Source: Candidatus Bathyarchaeota archaeon (GTDB taxonomy: Archaea; Thermoproteota; Bathyarchaeia; 40CM-2-53-6; DTDX01). Taken from it: 64,000 nucleotides of DNA. Shown here one piece after another: positions 2,829-42,579 of this stretch. A model generated the notes under the pieces. It was not told where the DNA came from, searched no databases, and was given only the letters and a program-made list of their open reading frames with translations. Position 1 is the first letter of the stretch. Each line of letters starts with the position of its first letter. The position numbers were made by a program, and so were the translations under genes. The stretch lies in NCBI GenBank assembly GCA_018396775.1, contig JAGTRF010000007.1:22179-86178 (forward strand), in the 5' to 3' direction.

Positions 2829-2859
2829 CATAATTAATGCAGGAGAAATAGCTTATAAA

Positions 2860-4644
2860 ATGAGTGTTAATAGCAACCATTTTAAGTTAAAGGAGGTTGC
2901 ACCTTACTATAATGTTTTAAAGAAGATTGCTTTTCCATCATTGCGTAAAATTTTATTTTGGAATATTTCTTTTACTATTTTAGCTTCAATTTTTATTTTT
3001 CGAAATTTGACTCAAAGCTTTATTTTAGCTTTAAGCTTTATAGCTTCATCTTTAATCTCAGACTTTTCCTCTAGCTTTATACTTTTAAAAAATGATTCTT
3101 TAATGGATTTAAGGCGAAATATGGCTTCCTCCTTCTTTACTAACGCTGTTTGGTTAACTTTTTTATTGTTAAGCTTTATTTTTAAAGCAAGCTTGCAAAC
3201 AATGTTTTATTTAGGTTTCCCAATAGCTTTAACTCTTAGGCTTCTCGCACTCTCATCTTTATCTTCATCAAAACCTTTTAATATAGTTGCAGCTGCTCTT
3301 CTTGAACCAGTTTTATGCTTTATTTTCGTTTTTCAAATTTTAAATTTAAGCTTTCTAAAATCTGCTTTAACATTTTTAATCGTTATACCTTTAACTTTTA
3401 GCTATGTGTTTTTAACTTTAAAAAATGTTGAAGAAAAAGGGTTAAAGAATGTCGGTTTTTCAACGCTTGAGTTTTTCAGAAGTTTTTTAAAAAGCTGGTT
3501 TAATAATGAAAACTCTTCTCTTGAAGAATATTTAGATAAAATCGGTGTTTATAAAGATATTAAAGTGGCAACGATATCTTTTAGACGAAAAACTGATAAA
3601 AAACTTAAGGGTGTAATGGTTGTTTCAAACTTTCATCCAGGGCCAATTTTAGAGGTTGGCAGCAGTAATTTACCTTATTTAATTCAAAAAGAGCTTGAAT
3701 CAAAATTTAATATAGTTGCAGCTGTTCCTCATGGAGTTTCAGGTCATGAAACAAATTTAGTTTCATTTAAAGAAAATAAAAAAATTATTGAAAGCGTAAT
3801 TAAACTTTTAAGTGAAAGCGTTTATTTTGATAAAGCAAGCCAGTTTTTAAGAGTTGAATATGGAAAAGCTAAAGCTAGCTGCCAAGTATTTGGTGATTCT
3901 TCTCTAGAAACTTTAACGCTTTCTCCAGAGAATATGGAGGATATTCCCTTAATGTTAAATTATGAATTAACTGAGTTTGGAAAAAATTATTTTAAAGATA
4001 TAGCTATTATTGATGCGCATAATTCTATAAACGCTATAATTGAATTAAGCGATTTTGATATAAAACTTCTATTTAATACAGGTGTGGCAGCTATCGAAAA
4101 AGCCTCTAAAGAACCAGAATTCCCATTTAAATTTGGTAAAGCTAAAGTTGAATTCAATTATACTCCAAAGCAAGGTTTAGGTTACGGCGGCGCAACAATA
4201 TTTTTAATTCAAGTAAAAAATCAATTATGTAGCTATATAACTATTGATGGAAATAATATGAAATCTGGTTTAAGAGAGAAGATTTTAAATAAAATAAAAG
4301 AGTTAAATGTTGAAGATGGAGAAATAATGACTACTGACACTCATGTGGTTAACGGTTTAATTTCAGCTAAGCTAGGTTACTATCCTATTGGAGAAGGCTT
4401 TAATGAAGAGGAATTTATAGAAAAAATTTTGAAAGGAGTTAATGAAGCTTTAAAAGATCTTGAAGAATGTGAAGCTGCGTTTAACTCTAATTTTGTTAAA
4501 GTTAAAGTTTTTGGAAGAAACTCTATGGAGAATCTAGTTAACTCAATTTATAGCTTCGCTAAAAGAATCTCAATCTCCTTTATTGCAACAATGTTTTTAA
4601 TTGAAGCAGCTTTAATATTCGCTTTAAAAACTTTTTCCTTTTAA
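2860..4644 (+). CDS. large archaeal membrane protein, DUF2070-like (function unknown)
   Basis: 594 aa. The N-terminal ~190 aa has several hydrophobic helices, followed by a long soluble region and a C-terminal TM. Size and architecture resemble the archaeal DUF2070 family. The family call is from memory only. Confidence 0.5.
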   Translation: MSVNSNHFKLKEVAPYYNVLKKIAFPSLRKILFWNISFTILASIFIFRNLTQSFILALSFIASSLISDFSSSFILLKNDSLMDLRRNMASSFFTNAVWLTFLLLSFIFKASLQTMFYLGFPIALTLRLLALSSLSSSKPFNIVAAALLEPVLCFIFVFQILNLSFLKSALTFLIVIPLTFSYVFLTLKNVEEKGLKNVGFSTLEFFRSFLKSWFNNENSSLEEYLDKIGVYKDIKVATISFRRKTDKKLKGVMVVSNFHPGPILEVGSSNLPYLIQKELESKFNIVAAVPHGVSGHETNLVSFKENKKIIESVIKLLSESVYFDKASQFLRVEYGKAKASCQVFGDSSLETLTLSPENMEDIPLMLNYELTEFGKNYFKDIAIIDAHNSINAIIELSDFDIKLLFNTGVAAIEKASKEPEFPFKFGKAKVEFNYTPKQGLGYGGATIFLIQVKNQLCSYITIDGNNMKSGLREKILNKIKELNVEDGEIMTTDTHVVNGLISAKLGYYPIGEGFNEEEFIEKILKGVNEALKDLEECEAAFNSNFVKVKVFGRNSMENLVNSIYSFAKRISISFIATMFLIEAALIFALKTFSF

Positions 4645-37792: not shown

Positions 37793-38062
37793 ATGAGGAT
37801 TTTGAGTTACTGTGTTAGTGAAATGGCGAAAACTAAACCTATGCAACCTCCAATTGTAAGTAATAGTAATTTAAATTATTGTTTTAACCCTTTTGCGCGA
37901 GTTTGTCAACAAGCAGCTTGGTATAAAATTTGGGTTGAAGAGCAAGAGAAGCATTTAAGAAGTCGGCTTGCAACTGAAAAAAGGTTCCTTTTATACATGT
38001 TGCAATGGGGTTTTCCAACAGGCCCATATTGGGAGAAACCTATCGATATAAGAATTTGCTAG
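37793..38062 (+). CDS. hypothetical small protein
   Basis: 89 aa ORF with a strong GGGGG SD immediately 5' of the ATG. Trp/Tyr/Cys-rich; the tail overlaps the convergent dehydrogenase gene by 4 nt. No family recognised. Confidence 0.35.
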
Positions 38063-39198
38063 ATTTCTTCACTTAATTCTTTCATCTTGCTTGCTATAGC
38101 ATTTCCCACTTCAAATGTTTTCGCTGAACCGCCTAAATCCACGGGTTTAACTTTTCCTCCTTTTAACACTTCTTTAGTAGCTTCCTCGATGAGGTTGGCT
38201 GCTTCTTCTTCTCCTAAAAACTCAAGCATAAGCTTCCCAGCAAGAATAGTTGCTATTGGATTAGCTTTATTTAACCCTTTATATTTTGGAGCTGAACCAT
38301 GAATAGGTTCAAACATCGAGGTGCCTTCAGGGTTAATGTTAGCTCCAGCAGCCATTCCTAATCCACCTTGAATTATAGCTCCTAGATCAGTTAAAATATC
38401 GCCGAACATGTTTGGTGTTACAACAATTTGGAATGCTTCTGGATTTTTAACAAACCACATAGCCGCAGCGTCTACATAAGCATATTCAACTTCAATATTA
38501 GGGTAATCTTTTTTAACTTCATTTAAAACTTCACGCCAAAGACCATAAGCGTAAGTAAGCACATTAGCTTTATCAACAGATGTAACTTTATTCTTCTTCT
38601 TTTTTTTAGCTAATTCAAATGCGTATTTAATAACTCTTTCTGCGCCTTTTCTGCTTATAACCATTAATTGATAAGCCACTTCATCTAGGTCGCTTTCTAT
38701 ATCTAACTCAAATTTCACGCTGTAAATTCTTCTATAAAGGTTTAATTCTTCTTTAGCCTTTTTCTTCACTCTACCGCCTAAACTAACATATAAGTCTTCA
38801 GTATTTTCTCTAATTACATCAAAGTTTACATCTTTAGGTGATTTACCTGCTAATGGAGTTGGGACACCTTCAAAAAGTTGAATAGGTCTTAAATTAATGT
38901 ATTCATCAAAATAAAACCTTAAATTTAAAAGTATGCCTTTCTCAAGAATTCCAGGTGGAACACGTGGGTCTCCAACAGCACCCATATAAATTGCTTTATA
39001 TTTTTCAAGCTCTTTTAAAGACTCTTCAGAAAGCAATTCTCCAGTAGCTAAATAATAATCAGCGCTAAAAGGATATTTAACCCACTCAACTTCGAAATTG
39101 CAAGCTTCTGAAGCAGCATCTATAACTTTAATTCCCTCTGCTATAACTTCTGGTCCTATTCCATCCCCTGGTATAACTGAAATCTTATAAGTAACCAT
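38059..39198 (-). CDS. isocitrate/isopropylmalate dehydrogenase family enzyme (tartrate/D-malate/3-IPM dehydrogenase-like)
   Basis: 379 aa. [36 protein letters not shown] and [12 protein letters not shown] motifs. The substrate cannot be assigned by eye. Confidence 0.8.
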
Positions 39199-39322
39199 TT
39201 TTCTTCACCAGCTTAAGGCATAGCCTAACTTACGTTTTTAGCATTTAAAAAGAAATAAAAAGAGAGAAGATAAATTTAAAGGTTTAGAAAAATTTAAAAA
39301 TTAAAGAATGGGAAAAGATTTT

Positions 39323-39787
39323 TTAAAAAGGCATTTTATCCATTGGCCTTAAATTTATAAATGCTTGAGAAACGCTTCTTTTTGTAGGTTTTAACGTAAT
39401 TATGAATTTGCACCATTCATGCCCTGCAGCTTTACATTCAACTTCAAATGCGACAAAATCTTTTTGCAACATAGCTTTTAATGCACCTGCTATGTAACCT
39501 GCATCAAACCAGCAGTGAAGCTCTCCATTTTTTTCAGCTTCACTGCATGTAGCGCAATTGTAAACTTTCACTATAAGAAACTTTGAGTTTGCCCCATCAA
39601 CTTTTACCATCCCTATAGATTGTGAAGCATAAGCCTCAGATATTTTTTCTAAAGCTGCTTTAAAGCTTCTTAATGATGTGCCTGCGAAATCTTTTAAAGC
39701 TAGTTTTTCACCAGCATAATATAAAACCTCTTTTTTATTAAGCTTTAGAACAGCTTCGCTAATTGATGCTATTCGCCTTGAATACAC
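39323..39787 (-). CDS. V4R (4-vinyl reductase-type) domain protein
   Basis: 154 aa. CWFDAGYIAGALKAMLQKDFVAFEVECKAAGHEWCKFII matches the V4R C-terminal signature (C..aGyiaG......v.E.eC.a.Gd..C.F.i). GTG start with no nearby SD, so the start is uncertain. Confidence 0.75.
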   Translation of the reverse strand: MYSRRIASISEAVLKLNKKEVLYYAGEKLALKDFAGTSLRSFKAALEKISEAYASQSIGMVKVDGANSKFLIVKVYNCATCSEAEKNGELHCWFDAGYIAGALKAMLQKDFVAFEVECKAAGHEWCKFIITLKPTKRSVSQAFINLRPMDKMPF

Positions 39788-39820
39788 GTTTACTTCATTT
39801 ATTATTGTTTTAGATAAGTT

Positions 39821-39842
39821 TCTTCACCTCCTATGACTTTTT
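39821..39842 (-). repeat. copy B of a 22-nt direct repeat AAAAAG[C/T]CATAGGAGGTGAAGA
   Basis: Copy B lies between the repeat-peptide ORF and the V4R gene. The 15-mer CATAGGAGGTGAAGA is identical in both copies. Confidence 0.9.
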
Positions 39843-39859: not shown

Positions 39860-39937
39860 TTAAAATGGCATTCCATCTCTAAATGGCATGCCATCTCTGA
39901 ATGGCATTCCATCACGAACTTTGATTTTCTTCACCAT
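39860..39937 (-). CDS. 25-aa ORF: MVKKIKV-(RDGMPF)x3
   Basis: My translation; the ORF is below the track cut-off. The ATG at 39937 is preceded by GGAGGTGA with an 8-nt spacer; the TAA is at 39862-39860. The three 18-nt units differ only at synonymous positions (CGT/AGA, GGA/GGC, TTC/TTT). Confidence 0.5.
   Translation of the reverse strand: MVKKIKVRDGMPFRDGMPFRDGMPF
39863..39916 (-). repeat. 3 x 18-nt tandem repeat (coding RDGMPF)
   Basis: Minus strand: cgtgatggaatgccattc / agagatggcatgccattt / agagatggaatgccattt. Confidence 0.95.
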
Positions 39938-39942
39938 TACCC

Positions 39943-39964
39943 TCTTCACCTCCTATGGCTTTTT
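39943..39964 (-). repeat. copy A of a 22-nt direct repeat AAAAAG[C/T]CATAGGAGGTGAAGA
   Basis: Copy A lies upstream of the repeat-peptide ORF and supplies its SD-like GGAGGTGA. It is preceded by the TATA-like TTTATTAAAAA. Confidence 0.9.
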
Positions 39965-40259: not shown

Positions 40260-41123
40260 TTGAGGCTCATAAAGTTGGTTGAAAAATACGTTGAATTGAT
40301 GGAAAAGCTTAAGAAACAAGAAGAAACACTTAAGTTAAGAATGAAAAAAGTAAAGCATAAAGTTGCAGTTATAAGCGGTAAAGGAGGCGTTGGAAAAAGC
40401 GTTGTTACAGCTAACATCGCTTTAATATTCGCTAAAAAAGGATATAAAGTTGGAATTTTAGATGCTGATTTACATGGCCCCTCTATCCCAAAAATTCTTG
40501 GAGTAAGAGGTAATAAACTTGAGGCTAACTCTTCAGGGATTCTTCCCGTATTTGGTCCATTAAACGTGAAAATTGTATCAATAGATTTTCTTTTACCTAA
40601 AGATGAAACTCCTGTAATTTGGCGTGGACCATTAAAAATGAATGCTATTAGACAGTTTTTATCTGAAGTTGTTTGGGGTGAGTTAGATGTGTTATTTATG
40701 GATTTACCTCCTGGAACAGGAGATGAACCTCTAAGCGTAATAAAGCTTCTTCCCGAAATGGATGGAGTAATAGTGGTAACTATTCCATCTGAAGTTTCCC
40801 AGTTAATTGTTAAAAAATCAATAGAATTCACTAAAGAATTAAATATTCCAGTAATAGGCGTAATTGAAAATATGAGTGGATTCACATGCCCTAACTGCGG
40901 TTTTCAAATAGATTTATTTAAATCTGGTGGTGGAGAAAAAATAGCTAAAGAATTAAATGTCCCGTTTTTAGGTAAAATACCGTTAGATATTGAAGTAACT
41001 CAAAGCTCAGATGAAGGGCAACCGCTTATAATGAAAAATTTAAATTCTAAAGCTTTAAAAAGCCTTATTAATATAGCTAATAAAATAGAAGATTTTCTTA
41101 AAGAGAAGCCAAATGTTTCTTAA
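40260..41123 (+). CDS. Mrp/NBP35/ApbC-family P-loop ATPase (Fe-S cluster carrier)
   Basis: 287 aa from a TTG start; later ATG starts are possible. Deviant Walker A VISGKGGVGKS, DLPPGTGDE and CPNCG (CxxC) motifs. Confidence 0.85.
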   Translation: MRLIKLVEKYVELMEKLKKQEETLKLRMKKVKHKVAVISGKGGVGKSVVTANIALIFAKKGYKVGILDADLHGPSIPKILGVRGNKLEANSSGILPVFGPLNVKIVSIDFLLPKDETPVIWRGPLKMNAIRQFLSEVVWGELDVLFMDLPPGTGDEPLSVIKLLPEMDGVIVVTIPSEVSQLIVKKSIEFTKELNIPVIGVIENMSGFTCPNCGFQIDLFKSGGGEKIAKELNVPFLGKIPLDIEVTQSSDEGQPLIMKNLNSKALKSLINIANKIEDFLKEKPNVS

Positions 41124-42579
41124 AGATTTTACATGCTCTAATTGCGGTGAAAAATACTTAATTAGAGATAAGCATTTAAAAACTTGTTTAAAATGTGGAG
41201 AGATTCTTTTAGCAAACTATAATATTGAAGAGATTCAAGAAAAATTAAGCAGAGAAGAATTAAACAAAAGAAGGCTTGGCGTATGGAAGTATCAAGAGCT
41301 TTTACCCCCAATAAAAGAAAATAATATTGTTTCTCTTGGAGAAGGAGGAACCTTTCTTCATAAATGCGAAAAACTTGCTGAAAAACTTGGCTTAAAGCTT
41401 CTTTATGTAAAAAATGAAACAACCAATCCTACAGGTTCATTTCTAGATAGAGGCTCTACTATTGAAGTTTCTAGAGCAGTTGAATTAAATGTTAACTCTG
41501 TTTATTGCGCTACTTCTTCAGGAAACTTTGCAGCTTCAATAGCGGCTTATGCTGCAAGAGGAGGCTTAAAATGCGATATTTTTATACCTTTAGAAAGAAT
41601 TAAAGAGTTGAATTTAGGAAAGCTTTATCAAGCAATAGCTTATGGCGCAAACCTAATAATAAAAAATAACCGGATTCATGAAAGCGAGTTAAATAACCTA
41701 AGCTATTCTATCTCTCCAATTGATCCATTTTTCGCTGAAGGAGAAAAAACCACCGCATATGAGTTATGCGAGCAATTAAATTGGATTCTTCCAAATAAAA
41801 TAGTTGTTCCTATGGGTCATGGTGAACATTTATCTATGATTTGGAAAGGAATAAACGAGTTCTTCACTTTAGGGTTAATAAAATCTATTGATGTAAACAT
41901 GACTGGCGTTCAAGCAGCTGAGTTTGCGCCTATAGTTAACGAACTTCAAGGAAAAAAAGCTAAGATTCAAACTCCTAAAACTATAGCTTTAGATTTAGTT
42001 ATGGAGAATCCTCTTTACGCTAAGCTAGCTTTAAAATCTATAAAAGAATCTAAAGGTATGGCTGTTAAAGTTTCTGATGATGAAATATTTAAAGCTATGG
42101 AAATGCTTGCAAAAATGGAGGGAGTATTCGCTGAACCTTCAGCTGCTTCAACAATAGCTTGTGTAAAAAAACTTTTAGATGAAGGAAAAATAGATAGAAG
42201 CGAAACTGTTGTATGCATAATAACCGGCGCTGGTCTTAAGGATCCAGCTTCAGCAAGAAAATTCGCTGAAAAAATAAGGAAAATTAATAGAATAATTGCT
42301 GGATTAGAATCGAAACGATTTACTAAAAAGCTTGGGGAAACAAAACTTAAACTTTTAAAAATTCTTTTAAATGAATCATATGGATATGAAATTTGGAAAG
42401 CGTTAAAAAATATAGGTGTAAACTTAGATATTTCAAGCATTTACCAGCATTTAGCTGAGCTTGAAGCTATGGGTTTAATAAAAAGAACTAAAGCTGAAAG
42501 AGTTTTAGGTAAACCTGCAAGATTCTATTATTCATTAACTAGTAAAGGGGAAGAACTATTAAGAAAAGCTGAATTTTAA
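41113..42579 (+). CDS. threonine-synthase-like protein lacking the PLP lysine, with N-terminal zinc ribbon and C-terminal PadR-like winged helix
   Basis: 488 aa. CSNCG...CLKCG ribbon. ThrC blocks NETTNPTGSFLDRG (Leu111, cta at 41443-41445, where the family has SFKDRG), TSSGNFAAS, AEPSAAST and ITGAGLKDP. C-terminal YGYEIWKAL...IYQHLAELEAMGLIKR...RFYYSLTSKGEELL. 11-nt overlap with the Mrp gene. Confidence 0.8.
   Translation: MFLKDFTCSNCGEKYLIRDKHLKTCLKCGEILLANYNIEEIQEKLSREELNKRRLGVWKYQELLPPIKENNIVSLGEGGTFLHKCEKLAEKLGLKLLYVKNETTNPTGSFLDRGSTIEVSRAVELNVNSVYCATSSGNFAASIAAYAARGGLKCDIFIPLERIKELNLGKLYQAIAYGANLIIKNNRIHESELNNLSYSISPIDPFFAEGEKTTAYELCEQLNWILPNKIVVPMGHGEHLSMIWKGINEFFTLGLIKSIDVNMTGVQAAEFAPIVNELQGKKAKIQTPKTIALDLVMENPLYAKLALKSIKESKGMAVKVSDDEIFKAMEMLAKMEGVFAEPSAASTIACVKKLLDEGKIDRSETVVCIITGAGLKDPASARKFAEKIRKINRIIAGLESKRFTKKLGETKLKLLKILLNESYGYEIWKALKNIGVNLDISSIYQHLAELEAMGLIKRTKAERVLGKPARFYYSLTSKGEELLRKAEF

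Follow-up and report, generated by a model that had tools for sequence, protein, structure and literature searches.

Is a reading frame of only 25 codons, most of which spell out one hexapeptide three times over, a gene in its own right, and if so, on what does its product act? This question is raised by a short open reading frame (sORF) that precedes the gene of a V4R-domain protein in a stretch of 64,000 nucleotides from a Candidatus Bathyarchaeota archaeon (contig JAGTRF010000007.1, positions 22,179 to 86,178), hereafter called the window. The sORF occupies positions 39860..39937 of the minus strand, from an ATG at 39935-39937 to a TAA at 39860-39862, and is led by a Shine-Dalgarno (SD) sequence, GGAGGTGA, at 39946..39953 on the same strand, 8 nucleotides ahead of the ATG. 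Read directly, its 25 codons give a basic head of seven residues, MVKKIKV, followed by three identical RDGMPF hexapeptides, which are encoded by 18-nucleotide units at 39899-39916, 39881-39898 and 39863-39880 of the minus strand (span 39863..39916). Tandem Repeats Finder described the sORF as a repeat of period 18 with 2.8 copies (score 88), and a repeat search of the window recovered the same three units. They differed at four positions, all synonymous (CGT/AGA, GGA/GGC, TTC/TTT), and were 1-4 nucleotides apart in pairwise comparison. The preliminary description of this DNA had reported the reading frame, its three RDGMPF units, their four synonymous differences and the downstream V4R gene; direct reading and comparison of the sequence, Tandem Repeats Finder and Pfam agreed with it on all these points.

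Comparison among lineages was based on 20 RDGMPF units pooled from eight of them. These units represented 16 DNA versions of a single peptide, with no non-synonymous change: 12 of the 18 positions were invariant, and the six variable ones were all synonymous sites. Units of the same peptide diverged in their codons by up to 7 of 18 nucleotides. In L007, a locus of GC-richer DNA where the V4R protein was 55% identical, the peptide end GMPF RDGMPF RDGMPF before the stop was written with other codons (CCG, CCC, CGC, GAC, GGG). In L044, glycine had been replaced by arginine at unit position 3 in all three units, each with different arginine codons. Units identical in peptide and diverged in codons imply that their identity is selected at the peptide level, as expected if each unit meets the same co-evolving site. 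The earlier suggestion that selection acts on the translated product and not on the DNA repeat is therefore strongly supported, orthologous loci having retained the reading frame with synonymous substitutions throughout.

A mini-ORF was found directly 5' of the V4R gene at every orthologous locus examined (group A, see below). Its product had the form M-A/V-K/R-K/R-I/A-K-V followed by two or three RDGMPF units; all these loci carried the SD sequence GGAGGTG(A/G) 7-8 nucleotides ahead of the start, which was ATG, or TTG in one lineage. A strong SD at optimal spacing was present ahead of the sORF in every lineage, and the stop codon varied (TAA, TAG or TGA). Variation of repeat number in frame, which the preliminary description had proposed to look for, was indeed observed, with two or three units in group A and one in distant groups. 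In the whole window, only the sORF and the V4R gene ended in MPF, and among SD-led reading frames of 5-30 residues, an end in P-[F/L/Y] was displayed by 1 of 51 in the window (this sORF) and by 2 of 117 in unrelated loci. The conservation pattern of the sORF is far beyond chance. Judging from these comparisons, it is a real gene, under selection on its peptide and linked to the V4R gene, close relatives of which were confined to Bathyarchaeia.

The V4R gene lies at 39323..39817 of the minus strand and encodes 164 residues plus a stop when read from a TTA codon (the annotated start is a GTG at 39785-39787; see below). Its product scored 54.5 bits with Pfam family PF02830, for which the gathering cut-off is 31 (E = 1.2e-14). 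An AlphaFold2 (AF2) model based on a 7-sequence alignment was too poor (predicted local distance difference test, pLDDT, 61), and a model based on 27 sequences was used instead (mean pLDDT 78.9, core above 90). Foldseek matched this model with probability 1.0 to 5kbg, 2osd, 5fru, 6iy8 and 1wc8; the proteins matched were MopR/PoxR/DmpR, MJ1460 and Bet3/TRAPPC3, the best structural matches being MopR, PoxR and DmpR (template modeling score about 0.55-0.66), and sequence-profile matches in the PDB were 2osd and 5fru. C103, E126, C129 and C137 were invariant in the subfamily alignment, with cysteine spacings of 26 and 8 and an invariant tryptophan after the first cysteine. The residues of a Cys3(+Glu) metal site are conserved, and metal binding is predicted.

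The V4R protein ends in MDKMPF-COOH (39326..39343, minus strand), which resembles the sORF unit RDGMPF and stands at the end of a linker of about 18 residues predicted to be disordered. In the AF2 model, the last 18 residues, linker and MDKMPF included, were disordered and undocked (pLDDT below 50), which is typical of a short linear motif carried on a flexible linker. All seven V4R orthologues ended in PMDKMPF (PMDKMPM in one), M-D-K-M-P being invariant, and a Pro-hydrophobic end was shared by 22 of the 27 subfamily members versus none of 148 other V4R proteins. When 1.84 billion cluster representatives were searched exhaustively with a profile, the scores fell off at a sharp cliff, leaving three end-to-end matches only (E < 1e-30), which ended in PMDKMPL, FETSPM and CMMPI. 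The V4R fold is thus confirmed, and the tail carries a motif peculiar to this subfamily.

A metagenome scan with the V4R alignment added 26 further loci (37-67% identity), which were grouped by V4R tail and whose upstream DNA was inspected. Group A, to which the window belongs, combines the tail PMDKMPF with a mini-ORF made of the basic head and two or three RDGMPF units. In group B, the tail RFE[T/K/S]SPM is accompanied by a TTG-started M[Q/T/K] followed by (REGGPF)x3, (RDGGPF)x3 or (RDRGPF)x3, often with a second sORF copy or a one-unit copy (MMRDGGPF, MLREGGPF). Group C1 has tails in ..RGMMP[V/I] and a mini-ORF encoding MRYARPRRSPMPF or a version ending in ..MPY, whereas group D has no tail and carries a mini-ORF of the form M..GPGDPRP(F/L). 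The sORF was co-oriented with the V4R gene and 14-50 nucleotides upstream of it in all four groups (36-50 nucleotides, and 14-19 in group D). Subgroup C2 departs from this layout: its V4R tail is PFELMPI, and its mini-ORF, MRYSRPRRSPMPF, has its own SD and lies 1.3 kilobases downstream of the V4R gene; 12 of its 13 residues are identical to the C1 version. There it follows an unrelated gene for 181 residues and is the last on its strand before convergent genes. This intervening gene (L070 1393-1938, plus strand) is uncharacterized and specific to C2 loci; the same locus also holds a convergent gene (2858-3433, minus strand) for a second, generic V4R/XylR_N-like protein of 191 residues without a Pro-hydrophobic tail. 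Throughout the clade, the pairing of sORF and V4R gene is conserved.

When peptides and tails were placed in register, a common pattern emerged, in which Asp or Glu at position -5 is combined with a Pro-hydrophobic pair at -2 and -1. The group A unit R-D-G-M-P-F faces the tail M-D-K-M-P-F, the group B unit R-[D/E]-G-G-P-F faces F-E-T-S-P-M, and the group C peptide R-S-P-M-P-F faces R-G-M-M-P-V and F-E-L-M-P-I. At position -3, groups A and C had Met in peptide and tail alike, and group B had a small residue (Gly/Ser) in both. The peptide ended in Phe, or in the case of L056 in Tyr.

None of ten versions of the mini-protein was present in a collection of 15 billion predicted protein sequences, and the motif was absent from the searchable literature. 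A protein-database query with the peptide gave 137 word-sharing candidates, none of which could be scored, a result made uninformative by the short, repetitive query. Independently of V4R, the DNA of 185,579 species genomes was scanned for the pattern DxMPFxDxMPF; among 22 matches there was one true relative (L014), which was from Bathyarchaeia and adjoined a V4R gene. The other matches, of LDYMPF type in Methanosarcinales, HDTMPF in Tumebacillus or inside long reading frames, were rejected as unrelated. Tandem repeats of x-D-x-M-P-F (LDYMPF, SDIMPF) were seen in Methanosarcinales at L015 4373-4579, L018 709-822, L031 366-617 and L033 155-376, and a fivefold HDTMPF repeat in Tumebacillus avium at L034 3098-3505. 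With no stop after Phe and no V4R neighbor, these are probably non-coding or low-complexity sequences matching by chance composition. We conclude that the sORF stands for a genuine family of micro-proteins, hitherto undescribed and bound up with one V4R subfamily of Bathyarchaeia, in agreement with the initial view of an unannotated reading frame with an undescribed repeat.

How such a peptide acts can be approached from its likeness to the V4R tail. Our preferred reading, to which we give slightly less than an even chance, is that of a trans-acting micro-protein which shares the motif [D/E]-x-x-P-hydrophobic-COOH with the tail and either occupies the tail's binding site or competes for it. 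The sORF would be translated, would make up one unit of two genes together with that of the V4R sensor domain, and would act through its product at the protein level. The peptide would display one to three copies of [D/E]-x-x-P-aromatic/hydrophobic, the last of them ending in a free carboxylate, and by mimicry of the tail it may bind the tail's own site, where it could compete with the tail, replace it or bridge several sites in a multivalent manner. Such binding would alter the state of the V4R sensor. The most plausible site would be the hydrophobic pocket for aromatic ligands in the V4R domain, the tail serving as a tethered pseudo-ligand and the peptide as a free one; by analogy with related domains, a peptide with Phe or Tyr at its end could plausibly be received by a pocket for aromatic rings. 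It is equally possible that the motif is read by a third protein, which is as compatible with the data. Binding, the identity of the site and the regulatory outcome are all inferred here. The full version of this reading, in which the peptide is a genetically encoded V4R ligand, the tail its tethered counterpart, and the whole a self-contained, peptide-gated switch whose tuning lies in the repeat number and in a deliberately weak TTA/CTG/ATA start of the V4R gene, appears somewhat unlikely.

Some observations speak for an action in trans. The C2 sORF is conserved with nothing to regulate in cis, and a function in trans is therefore needed there; as far as gene order can tell, this arrangement is the most direct evidence for trans over cis. 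In addition, concerted amino-acid changes across all units point to a co-evolving receptor rather than to the invariant tunnel of the ribosome. Taken together, sORF and V4R gene probably form a new peptide/partner module, the function of which we infer. Of the three roles offered in the preliminary description, that of a V4R partner or ligand is the best supported, owing to the tail look-alike and to the C2 sORF which is not upstream; binding itself is predicted.

Several points weigh against tail mimicry. AF2 left the tail undocked on the V4R domain. In group D, the V4R protein has no tail and yet a mini-ORF in ..GPGDPRP(F/L) stands 14-19 nucleotides upstream of its gene, so that the sORF is not strictly tail-dependent. 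The group B tail FETSPM is only loosely similar to the unit REGGPF, and the co-variation at position -3 is suggestive, resting as it does on roughly one evolutionary event. Internal units have no free carboxylate, hence multivalency needs either carboxylate-independent binding or proteolysis. Finally, the tight and constant spacing to the V4R gene and the Arg/Asp/Gly/Pro-rich end at the stop also fit a nascent-peptide element acting in cis.

The latter possibility is the strongest alternative. The sORF would then be a cis-acting regulatory upstream reading frame, that is an arrest, termination-stalling or leader peptide adjusting how the V4R gene is translated or transcribed, with a metabolite as a possible trigger, in the manner of TnaC and SpeFL in bacteria. 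Its co-orientation and proximity to the V4R gene in groups A, B, C1 and D agree with such a role, as was proposed at the outset, and so does its size, since a peptide of 8-25 residues would still be wholly in the exit tunnel at termination. The nascent chain abounds in Arg, Asp, Gly and Pro, its last or last but one residue ahead of the stop (-1 or -2) being Pro, and could slow elongation or release. Group D peptides end in ..DPRP-stop or ..DPRPF-stop. TnaC ends in ..DHRP-stop. Termination-arrest peptides of 14-24 residues are established in bacteria (PMC11890864). Amino-acid-level conservation is equally expected of arrest peptides, and the V4R start is often weak and non-canonical (TTA, CTG or ATA), suggesting unusual translational control.

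Against a cis-acting peptide stands, in the first place, the C2 sORF, which is not upstream of the V4R gene or of any co-oriented gene; moreover, the matching motif on the V4R C-terminus is left unexplained. A further difficulty concerns the V4R gene itself, which had been described as lacking an SD of its own, a premise that proved wrong: a second GGAGGTGA occurs at 39824-39831 (minus strand), 6 nucleotides ahead of the TTA. In groups A-C, the strong SD of the V4R gene lies at least 28 nucleotides past the sORF stop, beyond the reach of a terminating ribosome, although the 14-19-nucleotide gap of group D could permit occlusion of the start site. Folding and an eight-lineage alignment disclosed no RNA switch sequestering this SD, and no conserved structure joins it to the sORF; the only hairpin (z = -3.0 versus shuffled sequences) sits inside the repeat and arises because GGN-AUG-CCN is self-complementary. 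The sORF does not keep one stop codon, and its units change together between lineages while the ribosome tunnel is invariant. The features of an amino-acid attenuator were also missing from the sORF and its surroundings: no single residue was enriched beyond the composition of the unit, codons varied freely, no alternative hairpins were seen and the downstream gene is of sensor type. We are not aware of a demonstrated arrest peptide in archaea. On balance, we consider regulation in cis rather improbable.

The start of the V4R gene deserves separate attention. Its position is taken by TTA (39815-39817, minus strand) in eight group A lineages (window, L001, L008, L010, L012, L014, L036 and L038), by CTG in L007, L011, L056 and L062, and by ATA in L058; in other relatives it is filled by ATG, GTG or TTG. 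Distant ones begin with MSK..YSRR (ATG) or VSK..YSRR (GTG), with which the N-terminus of the window protein, LSK..YSRR, can be aligned, and the residues after the TTA, CTG or ATA codon are conserved as protein, LSK[T/I]I....YS[K/R]RIA. The non-canonical codon follows a strong SD by 6-8 nucleotides, and by 6 where it is TTA; in the eight group A lineages, the frame is closed by a stop three codons further upstream, and no canonical start is met until 10 to 64 codons downstream. In L010, L012 and L056, up to half of the domain would be lost if translation began at the first canonical codon. The products given by gene callers are accordingly shortened, to 97-118 residues. It thus appears, from these alignments, that the V4R gene starts at a conserved non-canonical codon, TTA in group A, although TTA differs from AUG at two positions and would be a very unusual initiator. 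The gap of 72 nucleotides initially given between the two genes is correct up to the annotated GTG, but the TTA start lies 30 nucleotides further upstream, leaving 42. On the minus strand, each gene is preceded by one copy of a 22-nucleotide direct repeat (21 of 22 positions identical). The first, AAAAAGCCATAGGAGGTGAAGA at 39943..39964, takes in the SD of the sORF with the A/T-rich bases that precede it, and the second, at 39821..39842, does likewise for the V4R SD. In L010, both copies share the same variant, CACAGGAGGTGAATAA, which suggests either gene conversion or a common protein- or ribosome-binding element before both genes. At the other end (39300-39330, minus strand), the V4R gene and the bases that follow it, CCT TTT TAA AAA ATC TTTT CC..TTTTT, include several T-runs resembling archaeal terminators; this suggests that the sORF-V4R unit ends there and that the next gene, Iso_dh (38059-39198), is transcribed separately.

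Another possible explanation, also foreseen in the preliminary description, is that of a multi-copy precursor cut after Phe or at Arg into RDGMPF hexapeptides. Further modified or not, in the manner of RiPPs or of the precursors of neuropeptides or pheromones, these would be a ligand or signal with V4R as a possible receptor. Units within a peptide are identical and each is bounded by Arg and Phe, their number varies from one to three without loss of frame, and cleavage would provide every unit with a P-F-COOH end like that of the V4R tail, solving the problem of the internal carboxylates. A gene for an M14 carboxypeptidase-like protein (weak Pfam match) was found two genes away in L007. However, no protease, radical S-adenosylmethionine, YcaO, cyclase or exporter gene was conserved next to the pair in any group examined, in line with the early remark that no modifying enzyme was adjacent. 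The peptides have no signal peptide, and a recognizable leader is apparently missing, group B heads being 1-3 residues long as opposed to the conserved basic seven-residue head of group A; one-unit versions (MMRDGGPF, MLREGGPF, MRYARPRRSPMPF) require no processing. We regard a processed precursor as quite unlikely.

That the repeat acts as DNA or RNA (operator array, structured RNA or slippage product) with an incidental reading frame deserves scarcely any credence, for although a near-palindrome (ATGGCATGCCAT) is part of the unit, shuffled sequences fold less well than the RNA and the 22-nucleotide repeat flanks the frame, a function of this kind is excluded, and effectively refuted, by the synonymous nature of all variable unit positions, and it is further opposed by the recoding of the same or related peptides with other nucleotides in the GC-rich L007 and in group B, by the SD, well-spaced start and stop right after Phe of each copy, and by a hairpin that is a by-product of Gly-Met-Pro codons and cannot form likewise in two-unit or GGPF variants. 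Two further possibilities were rejected. Read-through or frameshifting from the sORF into the V4R gene is contradicted by a gap of 36, 37, 40, 41 or 42 nucleotides among lineages, with no conserved frame relation, and by three intervening stop codons in the window. Initiation at a GTG inside the V4R SD followed by a +1 frameshift would depend on a short -1-frame reading frame which is not conserved (L001 has no stop), on a slip codon which varies (CTT, TTT, GTT, ATT) and on a GTG without its own SD.

Beyond the sORF-V4R pair, gene content differed between groups. Group A loci, the window among them, were surrounded by genes for ParA/Mrp, Iso_dh and deoxyhypusine synthase, and groups B-D by genes for a winged-helix-turn-helix (winged-HTH) protein, an Opp transporter and MazE/PIN. 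The winged-HTH gene is divergent to the pair (minus strand; L062 2503-4674, L064 2432-4618, L067 2496-4703), at the place where group A carries the ParA/Mrp (NUBPL-type) gene. The protein it encodes is conserved, about 725-760 residues long, and has winged-HTH domains at about residues 360-408 and 552-600 behind an uncharacterized N-terminal region of about 350 residues. This protein is a candidate partner or regulator in groups B-D; no homologue was found within the window. Adjoining ParA/Mrp in the window, a PALP gene (41113-42579, plus strand; pyridoxal-phosphate, threonine-synthase-like) displayed an N-terminal Cys-x2-Cys..Cys-x2-Cys zinc-ribbon-like motif, and Pfam marks on its orthologues indicate a C-terminal PadR-type winged-HTH domain, i.e. 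an enzyme-regulator fusion.

Many archaea possess stand-alone V4R proteins, which are related to Bet3, a subunit of eukaryotic TRAPP; hardly any ligands or partners have been described for them, and small aromatic or hydrophobic molecules are what this class of domain is known to bind to date. A co-encoded peptide copying the V4R tail provides a concrete and cheaply testable hypothesis on V4R function. Should it hold, V4R domains would gain their first peptide ligand, and Archaea a case of a tandem-repeat micro-protein regulating by terminal-motif mimicry. More generally, a gene of 19-25 residues under very strong purifying selection escapes current annotation, and a search for mini-ORFs repeating the terminal motif of a neighbor could reveal other micro-proteins. 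The conserved TTA start of the V4R gene raises a separate question of start-codon use in this archaeal lineage.

Among known systems, MsvR shows several likenesses. The best NCBIfam match of the V4R protein was NF053755, at model positions 129-236, which correspond to the V4R half; three cysteines are kept at the spacing of C206/C232/C240 in MaMsvR, where they are the conserved, redox-relevant ones (PMC3729527); and a large divergent winged-HTH protein adjoins the V4R gene in groups B-D. The differences are nevertheless considerable: the match reached 53 bits against a cut-off of 220, Pfam found no HTH, leaving the V4R protein without a DNA-binding domain, and MsvR, a protein of methanogens and not of Bathyarchaeia as here, has neither a Pro-hydrophobic tail nor a mini-ORF. 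A parallel for the putative pocket is offered by DmpR, in which phenol occupies an enclosed hydrophobic cavity beside a zinc site made of Cys151, Glu172, Cys177 and Cys185, with Trp128 between the two sites (PMC7264223). The Cys-x26-Cys-x8-Cys arrangement of the V4R protein equals the zinc ligands Cys151/Cys177/Cys185, and a conserved Trp stands beside the first cysteine. The domains of MopR, PoxR and DmpR, which have been solved with aromatic ligands in such a cavity (PMC7264223), are N-terminal modules of sigma-54 activators sensing free small molecules, whereas the V4R protein is a stand-alone domain with a disordered tail, for which the candidate ligand is an encoded peptide ending in Phe or Tyr.

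As to the peptide, TnaC, SpeFL and PepNL are, like the sORF with its 8-25 codons, short upstream reading frames with peptide-level conservation and a Pro near the stop (PMC11890864). The sORF differs from them by its tandem identical units, the recurrence of its motif on the C-terminus of the downstream protein, its placement in C2 and the failure to see an RNA switch. With regard to the terminal motif, a resemblance can be drawn with the bacterial single-stranded DNA-binding protein (SSB). The tip of bacterial SSB, ..D-D-D-I-P-F-COOH, is carried on a disordered tail and docks into hydrophobic pockets of its partners, and free peptide can compete with it. An acidic residue, any residue, Ile/Met-Pro-Phe, a free carboxylate and a disordered tail are common to both, by analogy only, as the V4R protein is not an SSB with an oligonucleotide/oligosaccharide-binding fold and belongs to an archaeal lineage. 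A lead beyond analogy, an OB_Ssb-like neighbor in L067 (group D), was rejected, its end being ..RRSRR and not PF. Plant and animal microProteins, small proteins that copy part of a target and compete with it, are established. We know of no described micro-protein that copies a terminal motif of its neighbor in tandem. Like microProteins, the sORF product is small (at most 25 residues), encoded beside its likely partner and overlooked by annotation, but what it copies is a six-residue terminal motif in tandem and not a folded interaction domain.

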